Source: Eledone cirrhosa (taxonomy: Eukaryota). From it: 64,000 bases of DNA. The notes under the pieces were generated by a model. It did no database searches. It was not told the DNA's origin and worked only from the letters and a program-made list of their open reading frames with translations. Of this stretch, positions 1,019-62,703 are shown in pieces. Position 1 is the stretch's first letter; every line of letters begins with the position of its first letter. Location: the NCBI GenBank assembly GCA_964016885.1, contig OZ024741.1:325562001-325626000 (forward strand). Reading direction: 5' to 3'. The translations under genes and the position numbers were made by a program.

Positions 1019-1479
1019 ATAATTACGGTATGTACACATTTCTTCTAAGTTTAAATTTACACCTAGTTGTGTATGGTTGATGGTATATTTAGTCAGTTTC
1101 TACATGCTATCGAAATGTTGGATAAATACTCTATTGGGGCCACCGCGAAGAGGCCACTTTCCGTTATTTGTCGGAGATTTCTTCATAAGAGCCTTTATTC
1201 TTATAGCTTGGTCTAATTGATTTTTTATATGGATTAATTGTGCTGATTGGGAGAGGAAATGGTATATATTTTACCTAATAATTCTAAAGACATGATTTAT
1301 GATATATTGCTCTAATTATTTAATTTATTAATTCTTCATAGAGCCACAAAGTGACCGGTTGCAACATATATATCTATAACTTTATGTATATGTAAACCTT
1401 TATATATATATATATATATATATATAAATTTCGCTCTACATGGCTGAATACAAGAAATGTAATCTGAGTTTTTCGAATA

Positions 1480-4400
1480 TCTATATATATAAAACTGAGG
1501 ATGTCTGTCTGTGTGTGTGTGTGAGTTTGAATCCCTAAAACTAGAGAAGCACTCAACTGACTGTTTTCAAACTTTACACATGTAACACTTATGTTTCAGC
1601 GAGTGTTATGAGCAAAAGAATCTCAAATGTTCAATGCCCTAGGGATCGCATTAGGCGATTTAGCGATCTCTCCCTATAATTCTTAGTCTTTCTCTTTTTA
1701 GATAGGTACATACATATAACGTCACGCCCTTATAATATCCGTCTCTATGTCTGGCTGTCTGCATTACGCCACTTCCCACAATTCCATATGCGTCCAGGAC
1801 GCACCCTTATAATATCTGTCTGTATGTCTGGCTGTCTGCTTCCTCCGGTTATTCTGCCACTCTTGCTCAAGTCAAATCTCACACTCATTCCCCAAACAGT
1901 TGCTAAGTGCACACAACTTTTACCTCACGTTTTAAGCCACAGTGTTGCTTACTTACATAACACCAGACCCTTACTTCTTTGCCAGCCGTGGTTGTGGCAA
2001 TACTAACTTTATAATATCCGTCTCTATGTCTGGCTGTCTGCTACCTCCGGTTATTCTGCCACCCTTGCTCAAGACAAATCTCATACTCATTCCCCAAACA
2101 GTTGGTAAATGCACACAACTTATGCAATTTTATGCGAATTACTTAATGAAAGCCGGTAACTATGTTTTAGTCAGTCTCTTCTACATACCGTGAGCAAAGA
2201 AAATCCAAATTTTAGTATTCTGAGCAAAAAAAATCTCAAATTTTCAATGCCCCACGGACCGCATTAGGCGATTTAGCGATCTCTCTCTGTAATTCTTAGT
2301 CTTTCTCTTTTTAGATAGATACATACATATAACGTCGCGCCCTTATAATATCTGTCTGTATGTCTGGCTGTCTGCTGCCTCCGGTTATTCTGCCACCCTT
2401 GAATTTTCACAGTGTTGCAATTTTATGCGAATTACTTAAGAAATAAAGTATTGTATATTATTTTGGTGTGTAAATTTTATACTTTGTAAGAATTATAAAT
2501 AACTAGCAGAAAAACCAACAACCCTATGACACCTGTTGCTCTGCCACCCCTGCTGAAGGTCAAATCTACCACTCATTAAACAGACATTTGGTAAGCGCAC
2601 ACAGTTTCTCTCTCCAGTTTTCACCTGATGCACGTAGGCGCTAATGCCTACACTTTTTTTACAGTGTTGCCCACAATCGTATCATTGACCTTTACTTCTT
2701 TTTTGGCCTCCGTTGTCGCAACGTTAAGCTTACTGTCATCCCAATACCCCGAGGGTAGTTAAGCAAGTTGCCTTGCCTTTACGTCACATACCAGTAGACA
2801 AATCCATAGACACCTAATGCAATTCACTTACAAGTTAGCCCTTGCTCTAGGAGTGAGTCTCACTGCCCTTCCTCCTAATTTTAGGACATGTCTCGAACGA
2901 AGAGATACTCCATCGGACGAAAAACTGCGAAAGCTGCAATATCAAGGGCAAGGCGGGCAAACGAATCATCAGAGGATTCTACTATCCGACGGTCACAAGC
3001 TGCTGAACGTGTTGCCGTAAAAAGAGCACTCGAAACAGACGACCAACGAACCGCTCGCCGAACAACTATTGCCGTTTTGACTGCTACTGCAAGAGCTGCA
3101 GAGACTGAACACCAGCTTCGAAGCTGCCATACCGTTAACGCGGCGTCAACAGATGCTGCAAGAGTTGCAGAGACTGAACACCAGCGTCAAAACCGCCATA
3201 CCGCTAACGCCGCGTCAACGTCTGCTGCAAGAAATGCCATGTGGAACTCCATTTCACCTGGCACCAACCTTTAGATTATCAGAAGCCTACAAGACTTTTT
3301 GCACACATACAACAGGTATGTCATCAGCTTCAAGCACGCATTTGAAGCAGCTCCTGCATCAAATTTCAATGTCGTAATTGATGCCTCGAATAGACCTTCT
3401 GGCGAACATTCGGGCCGCTACAATTTACCTGCGTGCAACGAAATAGCTGTACTTCTTCACGGTCATCAGCACCACCCTCGAGACAGTGTTTTACGGCGGC
3501 GAGACAACATCCTCCAACGTATAAGCGAAACGCACAGGTCTTATGACGCTCTTCAATATCCACTGCTGTTTGTGAAAGGAGAGGACGGCTACCGATTTGG
3601 TATTCCTCAGGATAATCCCGAACATCCTGGGCGTTCAACCAATAAAACTGTTCCTGCATGTGTTTCTACTCTTACCGCTTCATGTTACCCCGCAATTCAT
3701 TCAACCACCTGCACCAATCAAGAGACCTCTTTCAGCAATTCGCCGTCGACATGTGTGCGACAATGGAATCGGAAAGGTTGTGCTTTATCCGGTCACACCA
3801 GAGGCAATTGCGGTCTGAGAGCTACATCCACTTCCGAGATGCCCTCACCAATGATGCATCGCCAGTCAGCATAGGAAAACTCTGCATCCTTCCATCAACT
3901 TTCACCGGAAGTCCGCGCTACATGCACGAGAAGACGCAATATGCCATGACTTACGTTCGGCATTACGGCAGCCCGACCTGTTCATCACTTTCACTTGCAA
4001 TCCTAAGTGGAAGGAGATTGCTGCAGAACTGTTCCAAGGGCAACAGGCCAAATAGAATAGAAGCATGACCTCCTGGCCAGAGTCTTTCGGCTGAAGCTTA
4101 TCAAGCTGATGGAGCTCATCAAGAGAGGACAAGTCTTCGGAGCAGTTATATGCGACATGTGCACCGTCGAGTGGCAGAAGAGGGGCCTACCACATGCCCA
4201 TATCCTCATCTGGCTGTCTGCAAGGATATCTCCAAACGACATTGACAAGGTCATCTCCTCTGAGCTTCCCGATCTGTCTGTGGACAAAGACTTCTACGAA
4301 ATAGTGAAGGCAAACATTGTCCATGGTCCATGTGGGCGTGGTTTCAATTTGAGCTCACCTTGCCTGAACAACAATGTCTGCAGCAAAAGGTTTCCCCGAA

Positions 4401-7400
4401 AGTTCCTTAAAGACGGATACCCATTGTACAGACGACAGCAACCCAGAGACGGTGGTTTCACAACGACAGTTGTACAGCACGAGGTCGACAACCGATGGAT
4501 AGTGCCCTACTGCCCACTTCTTTCGAAGACCTTCGGTGCCCACATCAACGTGGAATTCTGTAGGTCCGTCAAGTCCATCAAATACATCTGCAACTACGTG
4601 AATAAAGTTCAGACGCTGCTATGTTCGGTCTACAGCAGGACAACAGACGTGATGAGGTCTCGCAATACCAAGTTGGCCGTTACATCAGTAGCAACGAGGC
4701 TTTCTGGCGGAATTTTGGCTTCCCAATACACCAAAGGCACGCTGCTATTTTACAGTTCGCGGTTCACCTTCCGAATGGTCAAAGGGTTTACTTCACCGAC
4801 GCTAATGCTGCCCAAATGGTGGAGGACTCACGAAAAACAACCCTCACTGGAATTTTGAAACTGTGTCGGACCGACTCTTTTGCACAGACTCTGCTTTACC
4901 CCCAGGTGCCGTCCTACTACACATGAAATAAGCAGCAATGGGTGCGCATAAAGGCAGGTCAACCTGTTGAAGGACATCCCGGCATAAAGTTTGACAGTTG
5001 CCTTGGGAGGGTTTACACTGTGCACCCGAACCAGCACGAGGGCCTCTACCTTCGCCTTTTGCATCACGAGGTAAGAGGACCCCTATCTTTTCACGACCTC
5101 CGAACTTTTGACGGCTGCGTGTGCGGCACTTACAGGGAAGCCTGCTTCAAGTGCGGCCTGCTGGAAGACGGTGCGCAGTGGAAAGCGACTTTGTTCGAAG
5201 CCGTTGCATTTCAATCGCCTATGCGTTTACGAGCTCTATTTGCAGTAATGCTGCAAACTTGCGAACTAAGCAATGTCTTTGTGGCTGCAGTTCAAAGAAG
5301 ACTTATCCGAGGACTACAAACGCCGGGCGCAATTGCAATACCCTCAAATGGAACGAACCAGCGATGAGGTCTTCAATTGTGCTTTGATTGACATTGAGGA
5401 CAGAGTTGCATCACTCGGTGGAAATTATTTGCCGTCATATGGTCTGTCCCAAGCACTCCGTACCGGGTCAAACGTACTTCCTACAGCTCTTCTTCGGGAA
5501 ACATCCTACGGCGTCGATGACCTTGCCAAGTGCGCCCGTGAAACTGAACCAAAACTTCTTCCGGATCAACGTCGTGTTTACACAATTGTTTCTGACCATG
5601 TGCGCCAAAGAAAAGGCGGTATGTCCTTTCTGGATGCTCCTGGAGGGACGGGCAAAACATTTTTAACAAGGCTTCTCCTTGCAAAAGTCAGGATGCACAA
5701 TGACATTCCGGTTGCTGTGGCCTCTTCGGGGATTGCTGAAACTTTGCTACCCAATGGCAGGACTGCACACTCCATTTTTAAATTGCTCCTCAATTTAACA
5801 AAGTTAGAAACACCCACTTGCAGCATCAGCAGGAATTCCGACCAGGGCCAGGTCCTGAAACGGTGTCAACTCATTGTCTGGGATGAGTGCACCATGCCGC
5901 ACAGAGGAGCTCTTGACGCATTGAACACAACCCTCCAGGATATCAGAGGCTGCCAGGATCCGATGGGAGATGTTACGCTTCTGCTTTCGGGCGACTTCAG
6001 GCAGACCTTCCCTGTAATTCCCAAAGGTACACGAGCTGACGAGGTCCAAGCATGTCTGAAGTCATCTCCCCTATGGCGCCATGTCAGGAAACTGACACTT
6101 ACAACCAATATGAGGGCTCAATTGCACGGTGACCAAACGTCTGCTGACTTTGCACGGGACATTCTGAAGCTTGGCGACGGCAACATGCCTCTTGACGCTG
6201 AAGGCGAACTGGAAGTGTGGCCATTTGTGACTTCTGTTAATTCTGTTAATTCTGTGGCAGAGCTCAAAGATAAAGTGTTTCCGGATTTGCAACACCATTT
6301 CCAGGACCACACATGGTTGTGCGAAAGAGCAGTGCTTGCTCCAAAAAACGCCACTGTTAACAATTCCAACGACCTGCTACTGGATTCCCTTCCTGGTGCT
6401 CTTCGCAACTACAAGTCTGTTGACACGATGTCCGATCCAAATGAAGTGGTGAACTTTCCACCAGAATTCCTAAACTCCTTACAGCCTCCGGGACTACCGC
6501 TCCACATACTACACCTTAAAGTAGGGACTCCTGTTATGTTGCTGCGGAATTTGGAGCCACCGAGGCTGTGCAATGGAACACGCCTGGCTGTAAAGAAAAC
6601 GACGGACCATGTTATCGAGGCAACAATACTCTATGGGCGCGGAAAAGGCGACGATGTCCTCATTCCGAGAATTCCTCTTACTCCCTCGGGAGCCGAAATT
6701 CCGTTTACCTTCAGAAGACTGCAATTCCCGCTTCGGGTCAGTTTTCCCATGTCCATTAAAAAGTCCCAGGGTCAAACTCTTTCTGTGACCGGATCTCTAC
6801 TGGAGGAGCTCTGTTTCTCCCACGGACAATTGTACCTTGGGTGCACTAGAGTTGGGAGCAGGGAGAGGCTTTTTGCATTTGCACGCCGAGGGAAAACAAG
6901 GAACATTGTTTACAACGAGGTGTTATAAATGCAACAGCGACAAGGTAGGTTCATTATTGCCCTTTCTTAAACCAATCTGGTCGCAATTCGTACGGGTTAC
7001 TAACTGAAATGTCCTTTTTCTACGGTTTAAGATGAACCCTTCAGCTAAGAACCATCCCCTTGACAATTGGTGCGGAAATGTAAGGTCGTTAAGCAGATCG
7101 TTGTTCGTTGGGTGCTCTAGACTTGGCAGCTGGGAGAGTCTTCTTGCATTTGCACAAGAACGAGGTAGGTTCGTTATCAACATTTCTTTAGGCAATCTGG
7201 TTGCGATTCATACGGCCTATTACCTGAAATACATTTTCCCTCGGATTCAGGTGACTACCTTCAGAGATGGACCTTCCGCTTCGCACTCGACGCGTCAATG
7301 TATGGCTGTTAAACGGACCACGAACGCATTCTGATTCATTCTAAAGGCTACCAGTGGAACAACCGTAACACCCTCCTTCAAATGTCAGAGAACGCAGTCA

Positions 7401-8462: not shown

Positions 8463-8993
8463 TTAATAATAATATTCGATTCGTTTACAATCATGAAAAC
8501 AAGCCTCATTTTTAAAGCCATGTCAGTAGAATGAACCCCCATTCTTGCTCTTGTGTTGGCATGTAAATAGAACTGCAGACACTAATGTTTCTGGGTATTA
8601 CCCTTCATCAGTACAGTTCACTATTTACCTGCCAACTGTCAGAGCTAGAGAAATTATATGATATTTTCTAAAATATACAGTGACTGACTGACCTGATTTG
8701 CATATTATCAGACTGGCTAATCAGTCAGATCTGAATATTCTACTGTGGTTTTAAAAATGAGGCTTCTTTGCATAATTGCAAACGAATCGAACATTATTAT
8801 TAATATTCGAAAAACTCAGATTACATTTATTGTATTCAGCCATGTAGAGCGGAATTTTTTTATTTTTATTTGAATATGGCAAAGCCGGCCTTTTATCGCT
8901 CGTATACAGGAAACTGACTGGCCAGTCTGCTGATCAGTGGATCTGGTAATATGCAGATCTGACTGATTAGCCAGTCTGCTATCATGCAAAATT

Positions 8994-9395
<402 letters not shown>

Positions 9396-9396
9396 A

Positions 9397-10917
9397 TGGA
9401 AAATTTGAACAGGAACAAAACAGAGAGGCAGTACAACGAATGTTTATTAATTTCACGCTCTTGAGAGTGGGGTGGTGGTGGGGAACGACGTTTCGGGCAT
9501 AAGCCCTTCTTCAGGTGAAAAGTGTGTGGGAAGAGAGTTCAAAGGGTGTGTAGGGGAGTGGTGGAGAGACATATAGCGAAAAGGGGGTGGGAGGAAACGG
9601 TGCGAATGAAATTAAAAATAAAAGCATGATCAAAATAAAATAAAATTAAAATGGGGTAAAACAGGTGGTGGAAGGGTGTGGGGCGTGTAGGGGTGGTGGC
9701 GGGTGGAGTGGGGAGAGGGTCACTGGGTGTCCGAGCGGGGAGGGCTGAAGGTGGTGTGTGTGTGTAGGTGTACGTGTGTGTGTGTGTGTGTGTATGTGAA
9801 AGCAAGGGTTGGGGGAAGAACGGGGTTGCATATTCAGGAAGAGGTGTGTGTGGGGTGGGGTGTAGGTCGGAGTGTCTGTGCGTGTGTGGATAGAGGGATG
9901 GGGGGAGAGGAATCCGGAGGCTGAAGGTGTAAATATGTGGTGGAAAGCACGTGTGTGTGGGGTTTAAGTGTGTTGTGGGTGTAGGTGGCGTGTGGGAAAA
10001 CAATTTTTTGGGGTGTGTGTGTGGGTGAGTTATAAAGGTGATTCCCTAAGAAGATGTGGTTGAATGGTTGGTAAACTCCTAGGATGGTAGTTGATTCCGC
10101 GGTCAAGATCCACATACGAGTAATCCGTGAAGAGATGGTCGGAAGAGGGGAGATGTGGGGTGCGCGCGCAACAGGAAGTGGTCAAGGCAGTAAGAGTGCT
10201 GTGTGTCTGTGTGTGCTGAGAGGTGGTCAGAGGGCATAACAGTAGTAGGGTGGAATGGTAAAGGGGCGAGGATGGGTAGGTGTGAAAGTTGGAGTGAGGA
10301 GGGTGTGTGTGTGTATTAGTAGAGGTGTTAGTGGGATGAGTGAGTGTTGGAGAAAGGGTGTGGGTGGAGCGGGGAGAGAAGGGTGTAGGGGTCGATGGAG
10401 GGAGTGTGGTGTACTGGTGTGTGTGTAGTTTGATGAAGGGGGTGTTAGTGATGTTAGTTGCGGGGTGGTGGATGGATGTGTGGGGGTGAGGGTTAGTGGT
10501 GGTAGTAGGATGTGTGTTTAGTGTGAGCGCGTGTATATATGTGCCGGTGGGTGTGTGCGTGTGATAAGGAGGGGGGAGGAGAAGAAGGGAGGGATGTTAG
10601 TATGTTAGTTGGGGAAGGGTGGTCGGATGAGGGGTGGAGTGGAGGTGTTAGTATTGTTAGTTGTGTGGTGGGCGGTGAAAAGGAGGGGTGTGTTAGTGGT
10701 GTTAGTGGGGGATATGTGTGGGGGGAGGGGGGCAGTCGAAGGCTAAAGGAATAAGGGTGGGGAGTTCAGGCCGGGGGGGAGTGTGGGTCTGTAAGATGAA
10801 GATGGTTCTTTGTTCAGCTCTGAGGAGATTGGCGGGTGTTCCGTGGCATTGGAGTAGGCCACAGACTGTGAGATGGCGTGCGGAATGTCCAGGGGCACCA
10901 AAGTGGCGGGCGATGGA
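9397..10917 (-). mobile_element. 5'-truncated Penelope-like element (end of GIY-YIG domain, long CA-rich 3' region, HHR); left arm of a palindrome
   Basis: Peptide IARHFGAPGHSARHLTVCGLLQC...EQRTIFILQT and frameshifted PPGLN match PLE endonuclease C-termini; HHR then AATAAA near the 3' end. Confidence 0.8.
9481..9520 (-). ncRNA. Minimal hammerhead ribozyme (CUGAAGA core variant)
   Basis: Minus strand CTGAAGA-A-GGGC-TTAT-GCCC-GAAAC-GTC; stem I poorly paired. Confidence 0.65.
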
Positions 10918-10933: not shown

Positions 10934-11808
10934 TCCATCGCCCGCCACTTTGGTGCCCCTGGACATTCCGCACGCCATCTCACAGTCTGTGGCCTACTCC
11001 AATGCCACGGAACACCCGCCAATCTCCTCAGAGCTGAACAAAGAACCATCTTCATCTTACAGACCCACACTCCCCCCCGGCCTGAACTCCCCACCCTTAT
11101 TCCTTTAGCCTTCGACTGCCCCCCTCCCCCCACATATATCCCCCACTAACACCACTAACACACCCCTCCTTTTCACCGCCCACCACACAACTAACAATAC
11201 TAACACCTCCACTCCACCCCTCATCCGACCACCCTTCCCCAACTAACATACTACACCCTTCTCTCCCCGCTCCACCCACACCCTTTCTCCAACACTCACT
11301 CATCCCACTAACACCTCTACTAATACACACACACACCCTCCTCACTCCAACTTTCACACCTACCCATCCTCGCCCCTTTACCATTCCACCCTACTACTGC
11401 TATGCCCTCTGACCACCTCCCAGCACACACAGACACACAGCACTCTTACTGCCTTGACCACTTCCTGTTGCGCGCGCACCCCACATCTCCCCTCTTCCGA
11501 CCATCTCTTCACGGATTACTCGTATGTGGATCTTGACCGCGGAATCAACTACCATCCTAGGAGTTTACCAACCATTCAACCACATCTTCTTAGGGAATCA
11601 CCTTTATAACTCACCCACACACACACCCCAAAAAATTGTTTTCCCACACGCCACCTACACCCACAACACACTTAAACCCCACACACACGTGCTTTCCACC
11701 ACATATTTACACCTTCAGCCTCCGGATTCCTCTCCCCCCACCCCTCTATCCACACACGCACAGACACTCCGACCTACACCCCACCCCACACACACCTCTT
11801 CCTGAATA

Positions 11809-11812
<4 letters not shown>
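10934..11812 (+). mobile_element. Inverted copy of the same PLE fragment (right arm), with a 212-bp internal deletion, ending in (TA)n
   Basis: Reverse complement of 9828-10917; mirror-image ORFs 10702..11133(-) and 10718..11149(+); segment 10389-10600 is missing. Confidence 0.9.
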
Positions 11813-13780: not shown

Positions 13781-13935
13781 AATATATAATATATATATAT
13801 ATATAATTATATAGATTGTATAATGTTTCTATATATATTCATATATATATATTTATATATATATATATTTCGTTTCTGAATTTGGCAACATGACCCTCCC
13901 AAAGTATAACAATATATATATATATATATATATAT

Positions 13936-15460
13936 GTAAAAGAAATCAAAGAACGTCTACATACTTATATTTTTATATGCTGACAGTGTTTCATCCATAC
14001 CATGGGGCAGGAATCATCAGAGCTTTATAAACAAAAATATAGTGCTGAGTATAAGCTCTACCAAGCTTAGTCACACGAACATTAGATATACAGTACAGGA
14101 TAATAATGGCGAGGTCGGAAATCGAAAGGATGGAGAGAATGCGTAATGGGGTTGTTATTCAACATTACAGCTACATATGAGGATATAGGCAGAATTTCTC
14201 ACAAGAGGCGGAGGCACATGAGGGCACACAGAAACAAATAGAGCATTTAACGATAGTTATAAAATATAATAATAATAATAAAGTAAAATTAAAATAAAAA
14301 TAAAAATAAAAATACAAAAATAATTATAAAAATAATTAAAAATATTTAAAGCACGCAAAGCCAGAGGAAGTTATCCATTGGTCACTATATAGAGCAGGTG
14401 ATTTAGTTTCCGATAACTTAGAGTTATAGAAATACTAAGAGACCCCTAAGGTACCTTCAGAAAATCCAAAGGGGATTTTATTCCTCCCCATAGTATACAT
14501 AATCAGGGTATACTAGTAGGTTACGGAATTACGTGGACCAGGTGTGCTAAACCTGAACATATACAGGCACCACATCAATACAAGCTAAACATAGACAATG
14601 CGGGGTTAATGCATGGTCAAGCTGAAGCAAATAATACACAACAAATATGGTTTAGTCCCTGTATAAGGCACATCTGGCGAGGAGTCACGACATATGTATT
14701 TCCACCGTAGAAGTTAATCCAATCGGTTTCATATGCCCCGATTGGCGAGGAGTTATAATATAAGTAGATCGTCCATAGATAGTAATCCAGTCTAGAATTT
14801 ACAACATATGTAGATCGTCCGTAAAATGTAATCCAGTCGCATTCATATGCTCATCAAAACATATCAGCACATATGGTAACATATGTTACAGGCTGATGTT
14901 ACACATAAAAAATCCTCCCATGTTTAAAATTCCAGACCGCGATGTGTTGTATGTCCAAGTTGCAGCTCCAAATTCCGTATAACCATATTCGTCACACCCA
15001 ACCCAGCAGCGACTGCGTCCAAATAATACCAGGTTAAATGCAGCAGCAATTCCCCTTTGACCAATCGCGCGGACGTGGATTAACAATCAATACAAAACAG
15101 AAAATAACACAAAGTGCTCAAATCTGTAAATCCACCAGGCAACACAGTATGTCCATAAGGTGAGGTCATACCCATATAGGCATACAATAATTATATAAGA
15201 CAACTCTCATACCGCGCAACACTTCCCCATTATAGAATTAGTAAAGTTACCTTGGGCTTATGGACATATCCTACGTTAACCGCGATTTAATAGTCTATGG
15301 TATGACCCATCTGACAATTCTGGAGGTCCAATTATAATAATATAGTTTCATTTGTACGAATCTTATTGATTCAGTGTGATAACTCTGTTGGTGACTGAAT
15401 TGTTATGGCAGTTCGAATTAAATAGTCTCATAGACGACATGATAGAGTAGTTCCCCCTTT
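13936..15460 (-). mobile_element. HHR-bearing PLE pseudo-LTR-like repeat, uninterrupted minus-strand copy (inner boundary uncertain)
   Basis: 13936-15219 is the reverse complement of 15785-16700 joined to 33875-34212; contains an HHR; ends in (TA)n. Confidence 0.75.
13979..14023 (-). ncRNA. Minimal hammerhead ribozyme
   Basis: Minus strand GCT-CTGATGA-TTCC...GGAT-GAAAC-ACT-GTC-AGC. Confidence 0.75.
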
Positions 15461-15497: not shown

Positions 15498-15680
15498 ATG
15501 TGGATTGGCAGTATCGGTAGAGGGTCGGACGCCATGCTTTGACGCATAGAGTTACAGCCCTTGCCATTCTGAGTTCAAAGCCACGGAGGTTAACTTTGCC
15601 TTTCATCTTTACGGGGTCGATAAAATAAAGTACCAGTAATGCACTGGTTAATTGCTGGCCTTGTGCCAAAAGCAGAATCA
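15498..15680 (+). mobile_element. tRNA-derived SINE with 19-bp target-site duplication
   Basis: A box TGGCAGTATCGG, B box GAGTTCAAAGCC; TSD ATTATTTGGTGACTGAAAA at 15479-15497 and 15681-15699. Confidence 0.9.
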
Positions 15681-15784
15681 ATTATTTGGTGACTGAAAAG
15701 AGTATGTGCCTTCTACGTCATGGATTGGTGTGTATATACCTATCGCAGTGTGTTTATTTTTTTCAGAGCAGAGTTCCTGGATTA

Positions 15785-16700
15785 TTGCGCGGTATGAGAG
15801 CTGTCTTATATAATTATTGTATGCCTATATGGGTATGACCTCACCTTATGGACATACTGTGGTGCCTGGTGGATTTACTGATTTGAGCACTTTGTGTTAT
15901 TTTCTGTTTTGTATTGATTGTTAATCCACGTCCGCGCGATTGGTCAAAGGGGAATTGCTGCTGCATTTAACCAGGTATTGTTTGGACGCGGTCGCGGCTG
16001 GATTGGACGAATATGGTTATATGGAATTTGAAGCTGCAACTTGGACATATAGCACATCGCGGTCTGGAATTTTAAACATGGGAGGATTTTTTATGTGTAA
16101 CATCAGCCTGTGCATGTTACTATATGTGCTGATATGTTTTGATGAGCATATGAATGCGACTGGATTACATTTTACGGACGATCTACATATGTTGTAAATT
16201 CTAGACTGGATTACTATCGGACGATCTACTTATATTATAACTCCTCGCCAATCGGGGCATATGAAACCGATTGGATTAACTTCTACGGTGGAAATACATA
16301 TGTCGTGACTCCTCGCCAGATGTGCCTTATACAGGGACTAAACCATATTTATTGTGTATTATTTGCTTCAGCTTGACCATGTATTAACCCCGCTTTGTCT
16401 GTGTTTGGCTTGTATTGATGTGGTGCCTGTATATGTGTAGGTTTAGCACACATGGTCCACGTAATTCCGTAACCTACTAGTATACCCTGATTATGTATAC
16501 TATGGAGAGGAATAAAATCCCCGTTGGACTTTCTGAAGGTACCTTAGAGGTCTCTTAGTATTTCTATAACTCTAAGTTATGGGAAACTAAATCACCTGCT
16601 CTATATAGTGACCAATAGATAACTTCCTCTGGCTTTGCGTGCTTTACATTTTTTTAATTATTTTTATAATTATTATTGTATTTTAATTTTAATTTTACTT
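15785..16700 (+). mobile_element. 5' part of the plus-strand copy of the HHR-bearing repeat; continues at 33875 after the retrotransposon array
   Basis: Reverse complement of ~14280-15219. Confidence 0.85.
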
Positions 16701-19700
16701 TATTATTATTATTATTATTGTTATTGTTATTCCTTGAATCTCAGTCATTGATGTTGGTTAACTGGAAAGTCCGTTGGATTGAATATCAAGCAACTACCTG
16801 CAGCCTCAGATATTCAGGACGTATCGGAGGGTTCTTGCTGTTCCAAGCAAGCATGCCTTTTGAAGCGTTCCAAAAATCGTGAAGGGGCCGATTTTCTTTA
16901 ACCATCCCTGGAAACTTTTGGAGATAGTCCCCAGTGCGCCTATGACAATCGGGATCACTTTGACTTCATGGCAGTTCCAAATCCTTTTCACCTCCCACTT
17001 TAGGTCCTGGTATCGGTTAATTTTCTCCCTCTCCTTCTCTTGCACTCTCGTGTCGAACGGGCAGGCCACATCCACAATCAGGCACGATCTTTTTTCTTTG
17101 TCCACAACCACCAGGTCAGGTCTATTGTGTTCCAGTTTTTTGTCCGTCTGTATCCTAAAATCCCACAGCACCTTCACCTGATTGTTCTCCATCACCGCCT
17201 CTGGCCTATGCTCATACCATTTCTCAGAATGTGGTAGATTGTTTACTTTGCACAGGTGCCAGTGGATCACCCTGCCCATCACATCGTGTCTCCAGCCCTT
17301 ATAGTGGGTCTGGGCTAGGTGTTTACACTCGGACACAATGTGAGCCACAGTCTCCTCTCTCTCTCCACAGATCCTGCACAGTGGGCTAGCCTCCTCCTTG
17401 TAGATATGGTGCTTCAACCACTTCGTTTTGAGGGCCTGCTCCTGCGCAGCCATTAGCATTCCTTCTGTAGCCTTTTTGAGGTCTCCTCTTCTCAACCAGT
17501 TCCATGTCTGTGGATCTCTAAATTCAGTTTTCTCAAAGAAGGTACTATGAAGGGATTTTCCCTTAAGGCTGCTCTTCCTCCTTGATGTTATTTCCTCCTT
17601 GGACATCCCCTGGCCTACTGTCCCCTCCTTCAGTACAGTTCTGAGCATTGGCTCCTTACTATAGGTCACGTATTTGTATAGGTTGTTTTTCTCCATCTGA
17701 ACACAGTCCTCTATGCTGATAAGACCTCTTCCACCCTCAGATCTCCTTAGGTAGAGTCTATCGACATCACTCCTCTTGTGGAACATGTTGTAGATAGTCA
17801 ATAGTTTCCTAGTCTTCCTATCCATTTCTTTTTGTTCAGCAACATTCTATCTCAGAATTCCCGCACTGTACCTAATAATAGACACAGCTCGGGAATTTAC
17901 TGCGCTTATGGCATTTCTGCTGTTCAGATGTGTCTTCAATACGCTCCTTACTCTCCGAATGTATTCAGTTCTTAACAATTCCTTCATTTTTTTGTTCTTT
18001 ATGCCATCAGCCTCCAGAACGCCCAAATACTTGTATCCTTCCTCAGAGTCAATTTCCTTTATCATCTCACCTGTTGGTATCTGGATCCCGTTACTTCTGC
18101 TCAACCTACCCCTCTTCATCACAATGACTCCACATTTACCAACACCAAACTGCATACATATATCACTGCTGAAAATACGGACAGTGTCAACAAGCACATC
18201 CAACTCCTTCTCACTTTTCCCGATGAGCTTGAGATCGTCCATGAAGAGGAGGTGATTGATGGTAAGCTCTCCCCTTCCCAACTTGTATCCTGCTCTCACT
18301 TTTCGCAGCATAATGGTCAAGGGCATCAGGGCAAGGACAAACAACAGAGGGCACAGGCTATCTCCCTGGAAGATACCTCTCTTGATCTTCACGCTTCCCA
18401 AGGATACTCCAGTTGATGTCAACTCTGTCTCCCAGGACCCCATACTCCTGCCTAGCAACTGTCTGATGTTATCTGCCACCCTGAAGATCTCCAGGCTTTT
18501 GGTGATCCAGGAATGAGGCACCATGTCAAATGCCTTTCTGTAGTCTATCCATCCCATGGCAAGATCAGTGTGTCTCCTCCTGCAATTCCCCATTACCATC
18601 TTATCAATAAGCAACTGGTCCTTTGTACCACGTGACTTCTTTCGGCATCCTTTCTGTTCGTCCGGTAACAAGTTGTTTGTGTGGAGGTGATGGTAGATTT
18701 CCTCAGCCACAATGCTCGTCAACAGTTTCCACATTACGGGCAGACATGTAATAGGTCTATAGTTGGTAACATCATTACCCTTGATTCGGTCTTTCATTAT
18801 CAGAACTGTGGTACCTTTTGTCAACCACTCTGGCACCTCACCCGACACCAAGCAGTCATTGAACATGGCCGTCAGCTTCGGGTGGAAGGATGTTAAATGT
18901 TTAATCCAATACCCCTGCACACCATCTGGGCCTGGTGATTTCCAGTTGGTTAGTTTTTTGGCTTGCCCCTTAAGAGTTTCAACTGTGATACTCAAATCAG
19001 TCTGTTGCTGTGCCTGCTCACCGATCTCCCTCTGTACTGTCTCAATCCACCCTGCCTGGGCATTGTGTCTAACATCCTGCTCCCATATTCCTCTCCAGAA
19101 TGTTTTAGTATATTCCGCCCCAGGGATCAAGTCGTTGCCTCTTTCTTTCCCCTCAAGCTGTCCAAACAGCATCTTCTGGTTGTTGTCGAACACGCGGTTC
19201 TGTTTATACTGACTGACTCTGTTCTCGTATCGCCTGATTTTTGCACTCTTTGCTACAATGCGTTGCTTCAATTCCTCTATGATAATATTTAGCTTTTTAC
19301 TCCTAGTTTTGTATTTTATTTCCAGTCTATTTTTAGTGCCTATGTTTTTTAGTGTCCCATTCAGTAGTGACTCAAGCTTTCCTATGTCATTTCTCATTTC
19401 CCCGATTTGCCCACTCAGTCGCTTCTTCCACCACGGCTCTGCTCTTTCTTGTCTGTTGTTTCCTCTCGCTTTTATACCAAGTAGTTTCCTCACCGTATGT
19501 GCTGTTGCTTTGAGGATATTGTTGCACTGGTGAAGGCTCCTCGCCTCAAGGTATGGGATGACTTTGTTTACCTTAGCTGTTGTTTCTTTTAACTTTTTCC
19601 TGTGTACAAATCTTAGGTTCATAGGTCTCCCACTATCATTGTTCAATTCATCTACCACTAAATTTAGGATGTCAACCGAATCTTGTCCTAGCCCGTCAGC

Positions 19701-21280: not shown

Positions 21281-21297
21281 TTATTATTATTATTATT

Positions 21298-44447: not shown

Positions 44448-44538
<91 letters not shown>

Positions 44539-44763: not shown

Positions 44764-44852
44764 ATATATATATATATATAGGAACCAGTAAGACCCCGAC
44801 AGCTGAGCTCAAGCCGTTTCGACGGCTAATTCAGTCCAGAATTAGCCGTCGA

Positions 44853-46469
44853 AATTTAAGGAGTAATTTATTCAGTTGCTGCAGACATAGATTGAACTCA
44901 ACGTTTAAATATAAATATAAATTTAAAATGTAGTATAATTAATTAAGAAATTTAGTTAATATATGAAACCTGACGATAAATCATTAGATTCCTTCACCCT
45001 TTTCTTTTTAAACTTTCTTCCTAAATATAAACAAGGATATAATTAAATTACTCTAAAATGTATATGCTCCCAATGTATTAAATAAAATTTACGTAAGATA
45101 AGTTTCTATACTAAATATAAGGGCATCCGTAGAATCACTGGGTCTTCTAAATCTTTTAAATTATTTTTATTTTTTATTTGTTTTTGACTCTGATAGCTTC
45201 TAATAACTTTCATATGTCTACCCTTGCAATATCTTGTTTGAGATATAGGTAGGATAGATTTCTATAATAAATATATAAAACATATTATTTAACTTGAGAT
45301 ACTCTATAGTGTGTTAAAGATATTTAATGCTTTGATATTTCTGTATTAATATATTGATATTTGATTATCTCTATACAAAGGCCATTTGTGTGCATTAACA
45401 TGCATATAAAAGGTTTATAGAGTGTATTTATGTGTTCGTATATATGTCTGTATATATGCATAACGATGCTGGAAAACTCACGCAGATATTTATTTATACA
45501 TATGTATATGTATGTATGGTTGTGTGTGTATATGTTGATGTGTGTTGCAGATATGCATAATATTAAATACATGAACGGTAATCATATATATGAGGACATG
45601 AATATTAATCGTATTTTTACGTATATATACTGTGAAATTTTTATAACACAAGAAATGTATAGAAGTGATCAAGTGAAATCATTTGTATGTCTATATTATT
45701 GACTGGAGTAGACATAATTTTCTCTTTTTTCAGGACGTACATATGCGTGTATATATATATACATATGTGTATCCGTATTTTTATAAATAGGGTATTTTTT
45801 GAAGGTTTTAACTCAGATTTTGGTATATTGACCTCAAGGTTTTAAACTAAACATATGGTCATTATTGAACAATGTTATTTTCTCATATTATATATCTATG
45901 TCTCATTCATGAATATTGATATTTACATTTTTATTATTCATTTCATATGAATTGTTAATTACATTAATATGACATGACGTAAAGTTGTCACTATATCCTC
46001 CTCTCTCTATATAGTACTTCCTCTCTCTTGAGTTTCTCTATCTGTATGATGAATTATTATCTCTCTGTTGCTTTCTTTTGTCTTTCTTATTTCTTTTTTT
46101 TTCTTTCTTTTTCATTTCCTCCTATCTATTTATATATATCTTTCTTTTCTGCATACATTCCTTTTCTCTCTCTCCTTCTTTTTTTCTCTCCTTCTCTCTC
46201 TCAGTTTTTTCTTTTTTTCTTTCTCTCCGTCTTTTTTCTAACTGTGCTTAACACTATAACTAATAAAATAATTATAAACATCTCACTATCCAGACAGCTT
46301 CCAAAAATAATGGTCGCATCTAATAGGGTACGTCAAAATTATTTATAAAACTGTTTATATATTGTATTTTGTCTGATGAAGGCATACCATATTTTAATTT
46401 GGTATCCTTGAAATATGTATAATGAAATAAATATGGTTTTATAAATATAGTTTCCATTTATTTTATATC

Positions 46470-46472
<3 letters not shown>
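44853..46472 (+). mobile_element. Second, shorter tandem copy of the Naiad-type PLE 3' region
   Basis: Matches 42742-44365 at ~2110-bp offset with scattered SNPs; ends in (TA)n. Confidence 0.92.
46368..46423 (+). ncRNA. Minimal hammerhead ribozyme (second copy)
   Basis: CTGATGA-AGGCATACCA...TGGTATCCTT-GAAA-TAT-GTA. Confidence 0.62.
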
Positions 46473-49904: not shown

Positions 49905-50640
49905 GGTGTGATAGATTGGCAGAATAGCAGAGCGCCGGGAAAATATTTGTGGTATTTAGTTACGACTTTCTACATTCTGAATTCAAATCCTGCCGAAGTC
50001 AAATTTATCTTTTATCCTCCTTGAGTCAATAAAATAAAGTTCAACTCACGTACTGGGGTCGATATAGTCGAGGTACTACTTCCCTCAAATTGCTTACCTT
50101 ATGTCAATGTTGGAAATAATTATTAATATCTAAATCGAGTCGTTAGAGGGTTCGAAAAAATACCTTGCGCATTTTTCCGGCTCTGAACGTTCTGAGTTCA
50201 AATCCTGCCAAGATCTACTTTGTATTTCTTCCTTTCGGAGTCGATAATATAAAATACTAGTAAAGAACTCGCTGTGCATTTTTCATTAAAAATTCTGACA
50301 TTTTGCCTAAATTGAAAACCATTAGTGAATTGGCAGTATCGGTAGAGGGTCGGACGCCATGCTTTGACGCATGGAGTTACGGCCGTTGCCATTCTGAGTT
50401 CAAATCCCGCCGAGGTTAACTTTACCTTTCATCCTTACGGGGTCGATAAAATAAAGTACCAGTAATGTACTGGTGTAATTGCTGGCCTTGTGCCAATAGT
50501 AGAAACAATTATTATTATAATCTAAATTGAAAATCGTAGATTGGAAAAGCGGTTAGAATGTTGGACAAAATATTTTCTACGGCATTTGTTTCGGTTATCT
50601 CACTGAGATCCACTTTGCCTTTCATCCTTACAAATTCAAT
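49905..50640 (+). mobile_element. Cluster of about four same-orientation SINE copies (best preserved 50325-50515)
   Basis: Repeated (G/A)TTCAAATCC boxes and GCCTTTCATCC cores. Confidence 0.78.
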
Positions 50641-52044
50641 AACAGACCTGTCAACCTCTAAAACCCCAATGGGGTACTCCCCATAAAAAAAGTACCCCCA
50701 AAGGGGAGAAATGACGCATACTCACTCCATAAAAAAGGTTTCTAGCATGGTGCCAAAAATAAGAACCAATATCTAAATGACTTGCCCAAAAGTAGCGATC
50801 GTTTGGAATTATTGTTTTCAATTTTTCTTAGAAATACTTGAACAAAGTTTTGAACATGTCAGTAGTTTTTGAAACACCAGAACAATTAATCAGTCCATGA
50901 AATAAAATGAACAAAAGAGTAACGACATCCTAATGGGGTTTAGGTGGTTATGTTTCGACAAAGCGGTCTAGTGGTAATGGCGGTGATGGTAGCGGTGATG
51001 GTAGGAGTGATGGTAATGGGGATTCTAGTGGTGGGAAATGTTAATTTATTAAAGCCGAAATATTTGTTAATTTTTTTATATTCTGCTTTAGCCTGCAGCA
51101 CATTAGTGCTTCAGACGGGAACGAAGATATAAAAAAAAAATGAAAATGGAAATATAATAACGATTGTTAGAATTTTGTATCATGCATCCGTGGGCCGAAT
51201 CAGAAAAACGACCAAGGTCATTTGTTGGGATTGTTACATAATAAATACTACAAAAATAAGAGAAAAAGGAACCGCCAATGAAATTCCAGTCAATAATATT
51301 AGGAGGGTGAAAAATTAACTCAGCTAGACTTGAAATAACCAAAGCGAATGTCCATTAACTTGCTTAAAACTCCGGCTATTATTATTAAAATTACATCACC
51401 ATTATTAAAAAAATATATTTAAAAAATCAAAATCACTAAAAATTGTTATTCTTTTTAGTTTCAGTTTCTGCATTTTAGATTGTGTGTGTGGGGATGGGGT
51501 TGGGGTTGGGGGTTGGGGTGATTGTTATAAAAAAAAAAAAAAACCCAACCCACCATCAAAAATAAAGAACATAAATGTTTGATGCAAAGGTATTTTTTAT
51601 CTTTTTATTTATTTATCTATTTATTTATTCATTTATTTTAATTTATATTTCAAGGGAATCATTCTTGCAATTTTTATCAAGTTTCAATCCAATATTTTAA
51701 AACTCATCGTTTGATTATTATTTAGAAGAGTGCGTTTCCTAAAGACATCCGCTATTAAAGAGAATAAAATAAAATTAAAATACTCTATACAGTTGATTTA
51801 CAGCATCGTCTCAGTTTGATAGCCATAAAGTATCAAGGAATTTATTTTCCTATTGCTTTTTGGCTCATTGTTTTTTACTTTTGATTTTTTTTTCACATTA
51901 GGTACTATGCCTCAGCATGGCCACAATTCAATGGCTGAAACTTGTAAAACAACGAAGAAGAAAAGTTTAAACAAAATTGGTTGATTTACGAAGCATTGCG
52001 ATGTTTGAAAGTTGGAAAGACAGTCACCATAATGCAAATAACTA

Positions 52045-52231
52045 TAATTGTTTCTACATTTGGCACAAGGCCAGCAATTACCCAGTGCATTACTGGTACT
52101 TTATTTTATCGACCCCGTAAGGATGAAAGACAAAGTTAACCTAGGTGGTATTTAAACTCAGACCGTAAAGGGACGTAACTCTATGATGCAAAGCATGGCG
52201 TCCGACCCTCTACTGATACTGCCAATTCACT
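52045..52231 (-). mobile_element. tRNA-derived SINE
   Basis: Reverse complement of the family consensus. Confidence 0.85.
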
Positions 52232-52316
52232 GTCCTATAACTATAATAATAGTCGATAACTATAAATAATAGTTGACTAAATCGACTAAAGTTCCTCTGG
52301 AGACGGAAAAGAGATA

Positions 52317-54040: not shown

Positions 54041-54309
54041 CACTGATTACACGTCTCATGAAAAATCAATGCTGAATATGTTTCAGGCATCTCCATTATA
54101 TCTAAGAACTTAAAGAAGCCATCTTAGTTAAACGGAGAGAAAGATGGAGAATTCGTTTCTTTATATGTATATATATATTTGTATGTGTGTATGTGTTTGT
54201 GTGAGTGTGAATCTATGCGTGTGAGTGTATGTGTATGTATATTTGTATGTGTGTGCGCTTGTGTGACTGTGTGTGAATGTATGTGTGTATTTGAGTGTAT
54301 GTGTGTATG

Positions 54310-57300
54310 TATGTATGTTTCTCTCTCTTAATTTCGAGTACATTTTTGACCGGCCATCTACCTGGTGTGTGTATGTATGTATGTTTTCTCTTTCTCTTAA
54401 TTTCGAGTATATTTTTTTGACCGGCCACCTTCCTGGTGGCAAGGTTGTAAAAGAAAAGAAATTGTCATCCCTTGAATCGCAAGAATGTATGCAAATTTTG
54501 AAGGTGCCAGCTATCGCAGCCATCTGCAGACTATGAATTAGGGAGCTGCGCTTTTTGTCCGCAAATCCAAGTCCAGTCATACTTTGGTCCAAGCGGGTTG
54601 GTATATAACCCGTAGCACCAATAATGATGGGTATGAAGCTAAAGGTGTATCTTGGATACTGGATTTGTAAACTCCTCATCAATGGTCCGTAGATGTCCTC
54701 CTTCTCCTGTATTTTTCTGACAACGTTTACATCAAGTGGGCAGCTGATCTCCACAACAGAACACGTTTTCAATGTGTGGTCCCAAACTACAATATCAGGC
54801 CGGTTGTGCTTTAATTTGGTGGCAGTTTTTATTTTCAGGTTCCACCAGTATTCCTTAGTGCCATCTGTCTCAATATATTCTTCCTCGTTTGTTGTTAATT
54901 TTGTTTTCCGAAGTGAGTTCCAAATGGTTCTAGCTATCCCATCGTGTCTCATGGGGAGGTAGTAGCGAGATGACATTCTTTCGCAGCTGGCAACAATGTG
55001 GCTTACATCCTCGATCTTTGTTTTACATAGCCTACATTTATTGTCAGCTGCTGGCCCTCCTCTTTTGTGCAGCAGATATTTGGTAGGGAGTTCTTGTTCC
55101 TGTATTGCATAGAGATATCCCTCAAGGTGTGATGTCATAAACTTGTCGGAACTCCATGCCAGGCTTTTTGAGTGGTTTATCCCCTCTATGGTCTGTGTTT
55201 TACGCCTCAAGTATCCATGCACAACTTTTTCTGTAAATTGGTCAATTTTCTTATCTTGTTTGAACATTGAATAGGATCTTCCGATTTCTCTGGGTGAGAG
55301 ATTTATATCAGGCTTTATTCCATATCTCTCCTCCAGATCAGTCGCTATTCTAATGATATTTCTTTTTTCATGCTCATAAACCTGGGCAAGATGGTTGCCA
55401 ACCTTTTTCCTCTGTTGAAGGTGTTGCTTCAGTGTTACTATCCGGGTCTCATATGTTGTTAATATTGATTTTAGACCCCGGCCACCTTCCTTGCGTGAGA
55501 AGTATAGCCTATCCACATCACCATTGATCTTAAAGTTGCCAGTAACACTGAGAAGTTTTCGAGTTCTAACATCCATCTCACTTAGTTCTTGCAATGACTA
55601 GTTCAGTAGGCCAAATGTTGGCGTTAGAATTGGCACAGCATAAGTATTGTGGGCAATGTATTTGTTGTATCCTGACAGTTCTGATGACCATATTTTCTTT
55701 ACTCTTCTGAGGTATTCAGTTCTGGTTCTCTCCTTATTTATGGGTCCATCATATCTGACATTCTCATCCTGTCCAAGATATCTGTAGTTGTCACCTGACT
55801 GCAGAGGTTGTATTGTCAGGCCGTTCATCTCTAGATTTCTAGAGGAGGGCACAGCTCTTCCACGTTTTACTGCCAAATATGCACACTTGGACTCACCAAA
55901 TTTCATTTTGATGTCGGTTGAAAATTGTGTAATGAGGTCCAATTATTTCTTGATGTCATTGATATTTGGCCCATACAACTTCAGGTCATCAACAAAGAAA
56001 AGATGGGAGATACTTCTGGGCCCACTTCTTTGTCCACCTTGTTTCCTGAGTAGGTAAGATAGTGGATTCAGTGAGAGAACGAAGAGTAGCACTGACAAGC
56101 TATCACCCTGAAAGATGCCCTTCTGGTAATGTATCTTATCAGTCTTAACCTGCTCCTTCTCACATCTAAGGATCAAATTGGTGTACCAGTTCTTGGTCAG
56201 GCGTTCAACAGCAGCTACCAATGGATGTGGGACTTTAGCTAACTGTAAAGCCTTAATAATCCACCCATCAAATGCTTTTTGATAGTCCAGCCACACGACA
56301 GTCATGTTTCTGCGATTCTTTGTTGTTTTTTCCTGAATCATTTTGTTAGTTAGTAGGTGATCTATGCAACCCCACACCTCCCTCTTTCCACCAGCTTGCT
56401 CAGGTGTTATGATGTTGTTGGTAGCACAGTGATCCTGTAAAAACAGGTTAAGGCACCCAGTATATAATTTATACATGATGTTTTGGCAGGCAATTGAGCG
56501 GTAATTTTTAGCAAGGGTGGTTTGGCTATTTTGGGGAATGAGGAGAGTAGTGGCAGTTGATAACCATCTGGGCAGTTCTTGTGTGCCCTTAATGGTTTCT
56601 GTAAACAGCCGTATGAGATCTTGCCGATAGAAAGTGAAATTCTTCAACCAGTATCCTGTAATGAGGTCTGGGCCTGGTGATTTCCTATTCGACATTTTCT
56701 GTAGAGCTGTTTCCAGTATTGACCCATCTATGTCATATTGTTTTGTCTGGACATGTTGGCAGTAGTCCTGTTCCAGTTCTTTTAGCCAATTAGCTTGTCT
56801 GTTGAATCCGTCATCCGTTTCCCATACAGGTCTCCAGTAGCTCCCAACCTGTTCTTTTGAAGGGGTGTCGTTTACAGGGATTGAGCTTTTGCCACCGAAG
56901 CTGCGATAAACTGATTTATGATCTCTGGCAAACAATCTATTTAGCAGTTGTCGTTTATGTGCTATTGACTTATATTTTAGTCTTTCTGTTGTAGCTGTGA
57001 GTTGTTGTTTCAACTGGTGTAATTTGGAGTTCAAAGTTTTAAATTTTGTATCTCCAAATCGTCTCTCTAACTTTTTCATTAGGTCTTCCTGGTGTCGTGT
57101 GAAGTTGCTCTCTATGTTGCATTTCATAACGACTGCGATGTGTGAGATACTTCGTCTCAGGGACAAAAATTTGGTTTTTAAATTTCGCATCCACGCTGGT
57201 TCAGGCTTTCTGTTTGTATCTTGATTGCGTGGTTTTAGATGTGTGTTATATGATAGCAATGTGACAGCTGAAACATACAACAAAACATTAAGCGTTTCAA

Positions 57301-58547
57301 ATGTCGTTTCTACACCTTTAGATCGTATAGCCTTCAGATAATTGCCAGCTATTTCGTTCACCGCTTCCAATTCCAATTTAATGGGTTCTTTACTGACTCT
57401 AGTGTTGTATGGTCTGTCACTCACATTAAGGCTGTGTATCTCTTGAAACATATCGTTCCATATCACTTGTAGGGTGCCCACAAGTTTTTGGTGCTCTGTT
57501 TGTTCAGTAGAGTCATGAATTTCAACCTCGTTGTTGATGTGGTGACAATTACTACTAGAGTCAGCTGACCTTTCTCGCTGTTCTTCAGTGGAAGTGGGAT
57601 GGATTTCAGCAAAATTGTTGGTGAGCTGTTCACTGTTAGATTTAGCTGGCCATTCTCTTTGTCTGTCAGTGGAGGTGGGGTGGTTGTCTACAAGAGCTGT
57701 ACTTGTAGTATCACTCAATTCCGTTAGATGTATCAATTTACATCTAATGATACGTTTTGCCTGTTCATTTAAATGCTTTGGAGAAAAGTCTAATTCTGGG
57801 TGTTTGGAGTTCCATAAAGTTTTTAGCCTTTGCATAAAACCGAACTTTTGGGGTTCAGATTGTTTGTATACTTCATATAATACTTTGTTAAGCTCGTAGC
57901 TCCACTGTGTACAACGGTTGTAGTTGCGATTTGGTCGAAGGAGACTTGTACTTTTTGCCATGATGAGTTCGTCTATTCACTAATATTTCGTATTTATTTT
58001 TCAAAATAGTCGATGATCTTCTTTAAAAGTTACGACAAAGTTCTGTCAGAATCAAATTTAAAGTTATTCACAGCTTGGGTAATATTTCTTTTCAGTTAGT
58101 TTTTAATTCTACAACTGTGTTTTAAACGTTGTTCTTGAATCGTTTGAATCGAGAACAAAAAGAACCGTTACTTAGTATATTTCTTTATGAATGTAATATA
58201 ATATAACAACGCGGTATTTATATGTTAAAGTTTATGTATCATTCATATAAATAGGTGTTCTACAACCTATTCACAACATATTCACAGTTTAAACACTTAT
58301 ATTTTTGTTTCTGAATCGAAAACGTTACTTGTATATTTCTTTATACATGTAATATAACAACGTTGCATTTATATGTTAAAGTGTATGTATCGTTCATATA
58401 TCATAAGTGTATGTATCGTTCATATAAATAGGTGTTTTACAACACACTTACAGTTCAAACACTTATGTAGAATTATTGTATGTAATCTTACCGCGTAATG
58501 TAGCTCAACTTTTTCCAATATATGGTATGTTGCCTTCATGTAAGCCG
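54310..58547 (-). mobile_element. Second, divergent R4-type non-LTR retrotransposon, near full length, with ATGT repeats at both ends
   Basis: RT-RLE reading frame; 3' end runs into ACATACATACATAC; 5' end abuts (ATGT)n at 58548. Confidence 0.82.
54480..57961 (-). pseudogene. RT-RLE ORF with two in-frame stops (55943-55945 and 55598-55600)
   Basis: Three ORFs in one frame; WSYELN, KSPGPD, WLDYQKAFD, GIFQGDSLS, FFVDDLKL, CRLC...HIVASC, HNRPDIVV...VEISCP. Confidence 0.9.
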
Positions 58548-61000: not shown

Positions 61001-61205
61001 ATAATAATAATAATAATTGTTTCTACTATTGGCACAAGGCCAGTAATTATCCCAGTGCATTACTGGTACTTTATTTTATAGACCACGTAAGGATGAAAGG
61101 CAAAGTTAACCTCGGCGGGATTTGAACTCAGAATGGCAAGGGTAGTAACTCTACGCGTTAAAGCATGACGTCCGACCCTCTACCGATACTGCCAATTCAC
61201 CGCCC
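61001..61205 (-). mobile_element. Full-length tRNA-derived SINE
   Basis: Head GGCGGTGAATTGGCAGTATCGG, B box, core, (ATT)n tail. Confidence 0.9.
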
Positions 61206-61349
61206 TATATATATAATAATAATAATAGTCATAAGAATAATTATGTTAATAATGGTAGGCTAGGTACATAGCTAAGTTTCATACGCACAGATAAAGAGAG
61301 AGAGAGAGAGGGATGTATCCAGAAAACATACATACATACTTACTTCTAG

Positions 61350-61406
61350 CTGTCTGATGAGGTCATAAATCTTGCATAACGGTTGTCACCGAAATATATA
61401 TAACAG
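61350..61406 (+). ncRNA. Minimal hammerhead ribozyme with a (TA)-repeat stem III
   Basis: CTGT-CTGATGA-GGT...ACC-GAAA-TATATA-TA-ACAG. Confidence 0.68.
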
Positions 61407-61411
61407 TGATA

Positions 61412-61498
<87 letters not shown>

Positions 61499-61536
61499 CT
61501 TGCATAACGGTTGTCACCGAAATATATATAACAGTG

Positions 61537-62573
<1,037 letters not shown>

Positions 62574-62575
62574 CA

Positions 62576-62632
62576 CTGTTATATATATTTCGGTGACAAC
62601 CGTTATGCAAGATTTATGACCTCATCAGACAG
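62576..62632 (-). ncRNA. Inverted copy of the (TA)-stem hammerhead
   Basis: Reverse complement of 61350-61406. Confidence 0.68.
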
Positions 62633-62703
62633 CTAGAAGTAAGTATATATATATATTATGAAAATAAAACAAAGAAGCCTTCAATACATCAAAAGTTTTT
62701 ATT

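Follow-up and report, generated by a model that had tools for sequence, protein, structure and literature searches.

According to the available text of Craig et al. (2021, PMC8557442), (TA)n is the target of almost all Hydra families of Penelope-like retroelements (PLEs) and of Naiads, with a bias of Neptune elements cited; an inverted arm and a tail at one end are described for PLEs, and their tandem or inverted structures and microsatellite bias are named as still unexplained. For Poseidon of Anolis (PAc), the accessible part of Frangieh et al. (2024, PMC11167929) reports in vitro that both strands are cut, models a dimer and finds that two internal starts of reverse transcription bound the tail. 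Primer pairing has precedents in two further systems. In Terminons (Athena), which are without endonuclease and use the telomeric overhang as primer, the DNA primer anneals to a brief sequence complementary to the target and situated downstream of the hammerhead, a structure said to exist in telomere-associated PLEs only (review PMC6431247, as far as available). In L1 twin or snap-velcro priming, an inversion arises when another cDNA is started on the RNA from a second nick, and ~4 matched bases suffice for priming (PMC2837659, PMC3649969, accessible parts). Finally, non-LTR retrozymes, in the available text of PMC7229834 and bioRxiv 10.64898/2026.07.22.740005, consist of non-coding tandem monomers with a type I hammerhead each.

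The window analysed here, the whole stretch of 64,000 nucleotides from Eledone cirrhosa, is nearly all repeats, and we followed its elements through 3.0 Gb of genome. An earlier note on this DNA had proposed an undescribed system in which ribozyme-bearing elements home to TA microsatellites and are primed internally. Homing to (TA)n and internal priming are both supported, yet the first is published for Hydra, Neptune and Naiad PLEs (PMC8557442, available text) and the second in vitro for another PLE, without target homology (PMC11167929, accessible part). With inverted arms, the tail and two-site priming also in print, the system as a whole is not new: elements and targeting are known, and the new part is probably an undescribed cis signal that makes the insertion mechanism testable. 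Compared with Hydra-clade PLEs in the same text of PMC8557442, the tail, given there for PLEs as 30–40 bp, measures 85–100 nt here, and a target overlap and a duplicated hairpin, neither mentioned there, are both found. The likeness to PAc lies in two internal start sites bounding a tail and in an AT-rich target (ribozyme cleavage is dispensable in PAc); PAc start sites lie inside the ORF at an AC-rich stem loop without target homology (PMC11167929, accessible part), whereas the putative start sites here precede the start codon, on AU patches that each have a separate hairpin downstream. In L1, as far as PMC2837659 is available, the first site is the poly(A) tail and the second is random and occasional, while here both sites are fixed and signalled. 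Family A, the retrozyme of this window, keeps both hairpins and obeys the two-site rule described below; retrozyme targets and end structures are absent from the available parts of the two sources cited for them.

The features are as follows; some part coordinates were counted from the printed sequence and may err by a base or two.

1–1400, plus strand: right arm of family A, made of 2.1 non-coding 654-bp monomers in tandem, with its end at the outer site
284–363, plus strand: type I hammerhead of family A, with a second copy at 940–1019
743–772, plus strand: outer site of family A, uncut, with a 5-nt alternating patch (743–747) and a bulged hairpin (755–772)
1302–1344, plus strand: inner site of family A, uncut, with a 6-nt alternating patch (1302–1307) and a bulged hairpin (1309–1344)
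1401–1426: (TA)13 at the outer end of family A
9396–10916, minus strand: 3' part of family B, with its usual end (9396) on a long TA tract and a hammerhead core at 9491–9514
10935–11811, plus strand: inverted duplicate of family B, internally deleted, whose atypical end (11811) is the B junction of the earlier note
13936–15219, minus strand: left arm of family C, with its inner-site end on (AT)12 (13912–13935) and a hammerhead core at 13989–14020
15785–16724, plus strand: right arm of family C, first piece, from self-alignment
33795–34306, plus strand: right arm of family C, 3' piece, ending near the outer site on (TA)8, with a hammerhead core at 34121–34152, the inner patch at 34209–34213 and its hairpin at 34217–34238
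41542–44450, plus strand: family D copy 1 (Hydra clade), with its outer end on (AT)44, a broken RT-endonuclease remnant to 42822, a hammerhead core at 44263–44303, the inner patch at 44361–44365 and its hairpin at 44368–44387
44853–46470, plus strand: family D copy 2, with its inner-site end on (TA)22 and a hammerhead core at 46373–46413
61573–62459: two-armed insertion of family H (Hydra clade), left arm ending at the inner site and right arm at the outer site, inner hairpin at 62361–62387
61325–61411, plus strand: 87-nt hammerhead element of family E ending on (AT)n, with an inverted copy at 62571–62657

The left arm of family A, which is inverted and has its end at the inner site, falls immediately outside the window on the upstream side. 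The right arm of family C appears to be split by a 17-kb LINE array; we infer that both C arms are a single insertion, and the "longer copy" at 34202 used for comparison in the earlier note appears to be the other arm of that same insertion.

Four families had been taken as unrelated; judged by their sequence features, all are PLEs or, for family A, a likely PLE derivative. Family D belongs to the Hydra clade and C probably does too, B is of Neptune type, and A is by its structure a non-coding tandem retrozyme. That they bear ribozymes stands for A, C and D, which show the full type I hammerhead topology; in B we found the core and stem II without that topology. Rfam at gathering score gave no match in the window and nothing relevant on eight metagenome loci, and plain minimum-free-energy folds do not recover these minimal hammerheads. 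Full copies of D carry a single ORF of ~750 aa with an RT followed by a C-terminal GIY-YIG-like domain (750 aa with YRDD and IIY..YVG at locus L133). A Pfam scan of this ORF gave 0 matches; the protein has 338 homologs, many with PF26215, the only named close one being from an octopod. The motifs RWR and SDKT in D, and RWK and ADKT in H, can be compared with RWK and DKT of the Hydra clade. The window copy of D has a CxCX5C linker, CRH and one Cys between the GIY and YIG equivalents; with a C-terminal CDLC, family D has the CxxC and CxH of the Hydra clade without CCHH, and both the hammerhead and the (TA)n insertion of that clade are present. For C, an RT fragment 50% identical to D lies upstream in one locus (L150), and no full-length copy with a Hydra-type ORF was found among the loci retrieved. 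Family B translations (L145) show the Neptune-type features DKG, a CX4CxxC linker and a C-terminal CCHH endonuclease, the DKG region being similar to Neptune1_Ap in a published alignment. Family A repeats with a period of 654 bp, its longest open frame is 74 aa, and each monomer holds one hammerhead (stems 6/5/3); a search for its direct parent returned weak similarity to family H only.

Genome-wide we also noted the Hydra family M (L358–L397). It is very young and probably active, and intact frames of 821 aa occur in it by the dozen. Its ribozyme core looks incomplete; the family is a good candidate for biochemistry. A further family, K (L213–L220), is a ~510-bp tandem non-coding element that ends on (TA)n at a 9-nt alternating patch, the adjoining T run being shorter in cut than in uncut copies.

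Where do the elements end? The four junctions claimed earlier (tract starts 1401 for A, 11812 for B, 13935 on the minus strand for C and 46471 for D) are all in the window, and the longer copies run on as stated; three of them recur, and that at 11812 is a one-off. The genome queries were the sequences upstream of the ends, so that ends were not selected for; for each query the best 40 of 1752–3047 candidates were scored and 30 loci kept. In family A (30 loci, 2 duplicates dropped), 25/28 arms end at monomer position 649 (16) or 90–94 (9), 24 of the 25 directly on (TA)n. Read by eye and including one near-duplicate locus pair, all ends fall on two sites in C (30/30; 17 inner, 13 outer) and in D (30/30; 18 inner, 12 outer). 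Each of A, C and D thus has two fixed ends, 85–100 nt apart. Family M behaves alike, with 75/79 ends at two sites (44 inner, 31 outer). In B, 28/30 loci end at one site ~95 nt past the ribozyme core (window 9396), whereas the B junction of the earlier note occurs in 1/30, the window copy only, with 1 nt of overlap. As a one-off in a palindrome with an internal deletion, we rejected 11812 as a priming site.

Uncut sequence from full copies shows how far each further end overlaps the tract. At six true ends the overlap is 6, 5, 5, 6, 8 and 5 nt against a null mean of ~1 (Fisher p 9e-6, for families chosen in the earlier note and with the B value from one uncut copy). Blind clustering of 977 TA-abutting flanks gave six further clusters with an overlap of just 2–4 nt (p 0.005; p 0.006 with two doubtful clusters added; five 8–14 nt clusters resembling internal tracts left out). 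The perfect overlap is just 2 nt at both H ends and at the M outer end, so that alternating T/A patches at ends span 2–8 nt, and most such patches are unused: among those of at least 5 nt, 5/7 in A and 3/5 in D. The AU patch is real and short, and because of these unused patches and 2-nt matches it does not choose the site alone. Pairing of a nicked TA end with the AU patch, as the earlier note had suggested, is plausible.

What else marks the ends? In the Hydra-type families a predicted hairpin, a 4-bp stem with a 2-nt bulge, lies just downstream, once per end. This motif, first noticed by eye downstream of uncut ends, has its core 7–13 nt downstream of 8/8 ends in A, C, D, H and I (null 3.9%) and was found at none of the listed unused patches of A and D. 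For the C outer end, the uncut sequence beyond it was not found in 30 loci. In family M, examined after the motif had been written down, the stem stands a few nt past both ends. The hairpin is absent at nine other end types (B, K, F and six unnamed clusters). On its own the motif is not rare, with 14 occurrences in 64 kb versus 10.8 after shuffling.

A scan of metagenome contigs extended this pattern. It gave 77 loci. The start codon could be read in 50, and 42 of these carry the motif no more than 100 nt from that codon (shuffle mean 2.8). Once redundancy was removed, 36 loci remained, of which 34 show one hairpin and 23 show two, 43–83 nt apart (shuffle mean 0.135), and the three bases after the hairpin are identical in 49/57 modules. 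Element ends inside these contigs lie 0–8 nt before a hairpin in 8/14 cases, counting one degenerate module judged by eye, and 6 of these 8 are on (TA)n. Above the 2-nt bulge a fifth pair position is present in 56/56 modules and is Watson-Crick in 55/56 (37 C-G, 18 U-A; 30.3 after shuffling of partners; no more than 16 with any other bulge size), a covariation that is carried largely by the contrast of inner and outer modules, in counts that ignore relatedness among loci. The next two pairs also exceed shuffles. When 35 modules were aligned without guidance, pairing reached 92% of cells, versus 22–54% after sliding; RNAalifold predicted no consensus structure for the module. The predicted hairpin is the likely signal for the start of copying at each of the two broken strands of DNA.

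The duplicated hairpin is probably an undescribed cis signal. In full-text literature searches and in the available portions of PMC8557442 with its supplement, PMC4209133, PMC7229834 and PMC3846280, we found no description of a duplicated module, of target overlap at the ends of endonuclease-bearing PLEs or of a strict one-site-per-arm rule; subscription papers, Repbase/Dfam notes, Arkhipova 2006 and the supplements of PMC11167929 and bioRxiv 10.64898/2026.07.22.740005 may hold such descriptions. The supplement text of PMC8557442 has 0 occurrences of hairpin or stem-loop, and one published Hydra consensus, as given in supplement text, shows the module near its 3' end.

The two ends are used in a strict manner when an insertion has two arms. 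Among 53 such insertions, 48 have one arm at each site, the remaining 5 have one off-site end each, and the same site is used twice in 0/53. Inner plus outer pairs account for 12/12 in D, 10/11 in A and 1/1 in C, where arms were required to end on TA, and for 25/29 in M. In the window the rule is seen in A and H, and in C by inference from self-alignment. Arms of one D insertion diverge by 1.2% versus 6.1% between insertions, and A arms are modestly closer within than between (2.5% vs 4.0%); the partner arm is the nearest sequence for 8/22 arms in A and 16/24 in D. Fold-back junctions show an overlap of at least 2 nt in 32/70 and inserted bases in 27/70.

What is the mechanism of insertion? 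The reading we favour, and hold to be moderately probable, is that Hydra-type PLEs insert by programmed twin priming guided by the predicted duplicated RNA hairpin, their ends being fixed on (TA)n. The GIY-YIG nuclease would nick both strands of a (TA)n tract. The region from the hammerhead to the start codon holds two bulged hairpins at a distance of 55–100 nt from each other; the RT, probably a dimer, would bind both, each hairpin docking one RT. By a short match of a few bases, each DNA 3' end would then anneal to the AU-rich patch on the 5' side of one hairpin and prime a cDNA, and the two cDNAs on one RNA would join at their truncated far ends to form head-to-head arms, only one of which would carry the tail. 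Non-coding family A may have moved in trans, because it carries both hairpins. Head-to-head arms with their 3' ends outward are the product expected from two target-primed cDNAs, and the antisense self-priming proposed for such palindromes (PMC3846280, available text) is not needed to obtain them. For the narrower proposal that the duplicated module (AU patch and hairpin) docks the two halves of a dimeric telomerase-like RT, letting both strands prime on one RNA, we see the case as evenly poised. If that docking takes place, the tail, the head-to-head arms and the microsatellite bias would share one cause, with one TA tract split in two. Family B, with one fixed end on an 8-nt patch, is without this hairpin.

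Alternatively, the hairpin could set the start sites by protein binding alone, the AU patches acting through their lack of structure alone, without a need for primer pairing. Non-homologous internal initiation is reported for the anole Poseidon (PMC11167929, accessible part), the ends of H and M work with a 2-nt match, and in both D and H the distance from the outer end to the start codon downstream is exactly 49 nt, although their overlaps are 6 and 2 nt, respectively. We nevertheless consider this unlikely: alternating T/A steps, rather than mere AT richness, peak 5–8 nt before the hairpin in the 36 distant metagenome loci (TA/AT steps 0.46–0.74 versus 0.17), and junctions move by a few nt between neighbouring alternating registers. 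Less probable still is an origin at the DNA level: the element would pass through a tandem or circular DNA form, the TA-seeking nuclease would cleave that form at the TA patches within it, and microhomology would link the fragments to the target. TA patches at both ends are predicted by this route too, and Craig et al. attribute the tail to endonuclease resolution of an intermediate (PMC8557442, available text); it leaves unexplained a bulged stem with a covarying pair and the preference for 2-nt patches over unused 7-nt ones, and in vitro tail ends are RT start sites (PMC11167929, accessible part).

Does insertion by twin priming also lengthen the tract? The suggestion that these elements may help extend (TA)n found no support, since no empty site was recovered and junction (CA)n rises with copy age. 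A local flank search for empty sites returned one pair only, of unrelated repeats; for one family A insertion the public contigs carry the insertion, a single insertion-skipping joint at that site had 21 letters on one side, within a repeat, and was discarded, and a candidate flank from an unplaced contig proved to be another repeat family. An RT that stutters on the AU patch like telomerase, lengthening or creating (TA)n, is very doubtful. PLE RTs are sister to telomerase (PMC8557442, available text), the C inner end is directly followed by (CA)n in 31 genomic matches versus 101 with (TA)n, and among the opposite flanks that had a repeat, none had (CA)n. Against stutter, junction (CA)n in family M occurs at 2/31 ends beside intact ORFs and at 5/19 beside more diverged copies, and flanking tracts, with medians of 18–40 nt, match a length-weighted median of 35 nt, a circular control from the same loci. 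The age dependence of junction (CA)n points to later slippage; we therefore rejected RT stutter as its source and, judged by (CA)n, see no telomerase-like repeat addition. Most two-armed insertions have TA on both sides, which suggests that a single tract becomes two, and a few TA units would be gained by duplication if the cut leaves 3' overhangs. A post-insertion origin of the ends, in which slippage or deletion joins TA patches within the element to tracts close by, would fit the one-off junction at 11812 in its internally deleted palindrome and the age-dependent (CA)n, yet as a general cause it is refuted by the family M ends and the arm-pair counts and is scarcely credible, as it cannot yield two fixed ends in 97–99% identical young copies or 0/53 same-site pairs.

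A cis signal of 20–40 nt with a covarying pair, present once per end, opens the unexplained features of PLEs to direct mutagenesis. It also defines which part a non-coding retrozyme has to retain for mobilisation and gives annotators of TA-rich genomes a guide to PLE boundaries. Were such an RT employed for RNA-templated insertion, it would serve as the cargo signal.

The window holds several further features. The two family E elements flank the H insertion with their tails facing each other and end ~9 nt past the cleavage site; part of a third copy is at 61496–61539. A 43-bp two-armed insertion of family F (13869–13911) sits between two TA tracts with a 15-nt outer and a 28-nt inner arm; this family has two ends, without the Hydra-type hairpin. 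At 44781–46470, D copy 2 has an inverted piece of family I attached to its 5' end with nothing in between; each of the two stops at an inner site, and the insertion is either chimeric or successive. Two more full type I hammerheads lie on the minus strand (8588–8611 and 62715–62739) in further PLE-like repeats (8463–8990 and 62695–62755), and a 133-bp near-perfect palindrome (34317–34449) directly follows the TA tract at the C outer end.

The LINE array (16679–33780, minus strand) is tandem and RT-bearing. Two of its ORFs, of 1141 aa, are intact, and it includes several 3' fragments of 1.2 kb, each of which stops at (ATT/TAT)n; it resembles a microsatellite-targeting LINE with a restriction-like endonuclease. 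A second, broken LINE of that type spans 54161–57976, and a broken Helitron (Helitron_like_N and PIF1 matches) spans 3275–6928 on the plus strand. A 24-bp minisatellite of ~37 units with long open frames on both strands occupies 36221–37280. Lastly, a dispersed SINE-like repeat of ~190 bp is present in at least 10 copies, among them 15498–15686, 21281–21496, 37292–37514, 39333–39536, 41365–41540, 50312–50524, 52029–52251 and 61001–61225.
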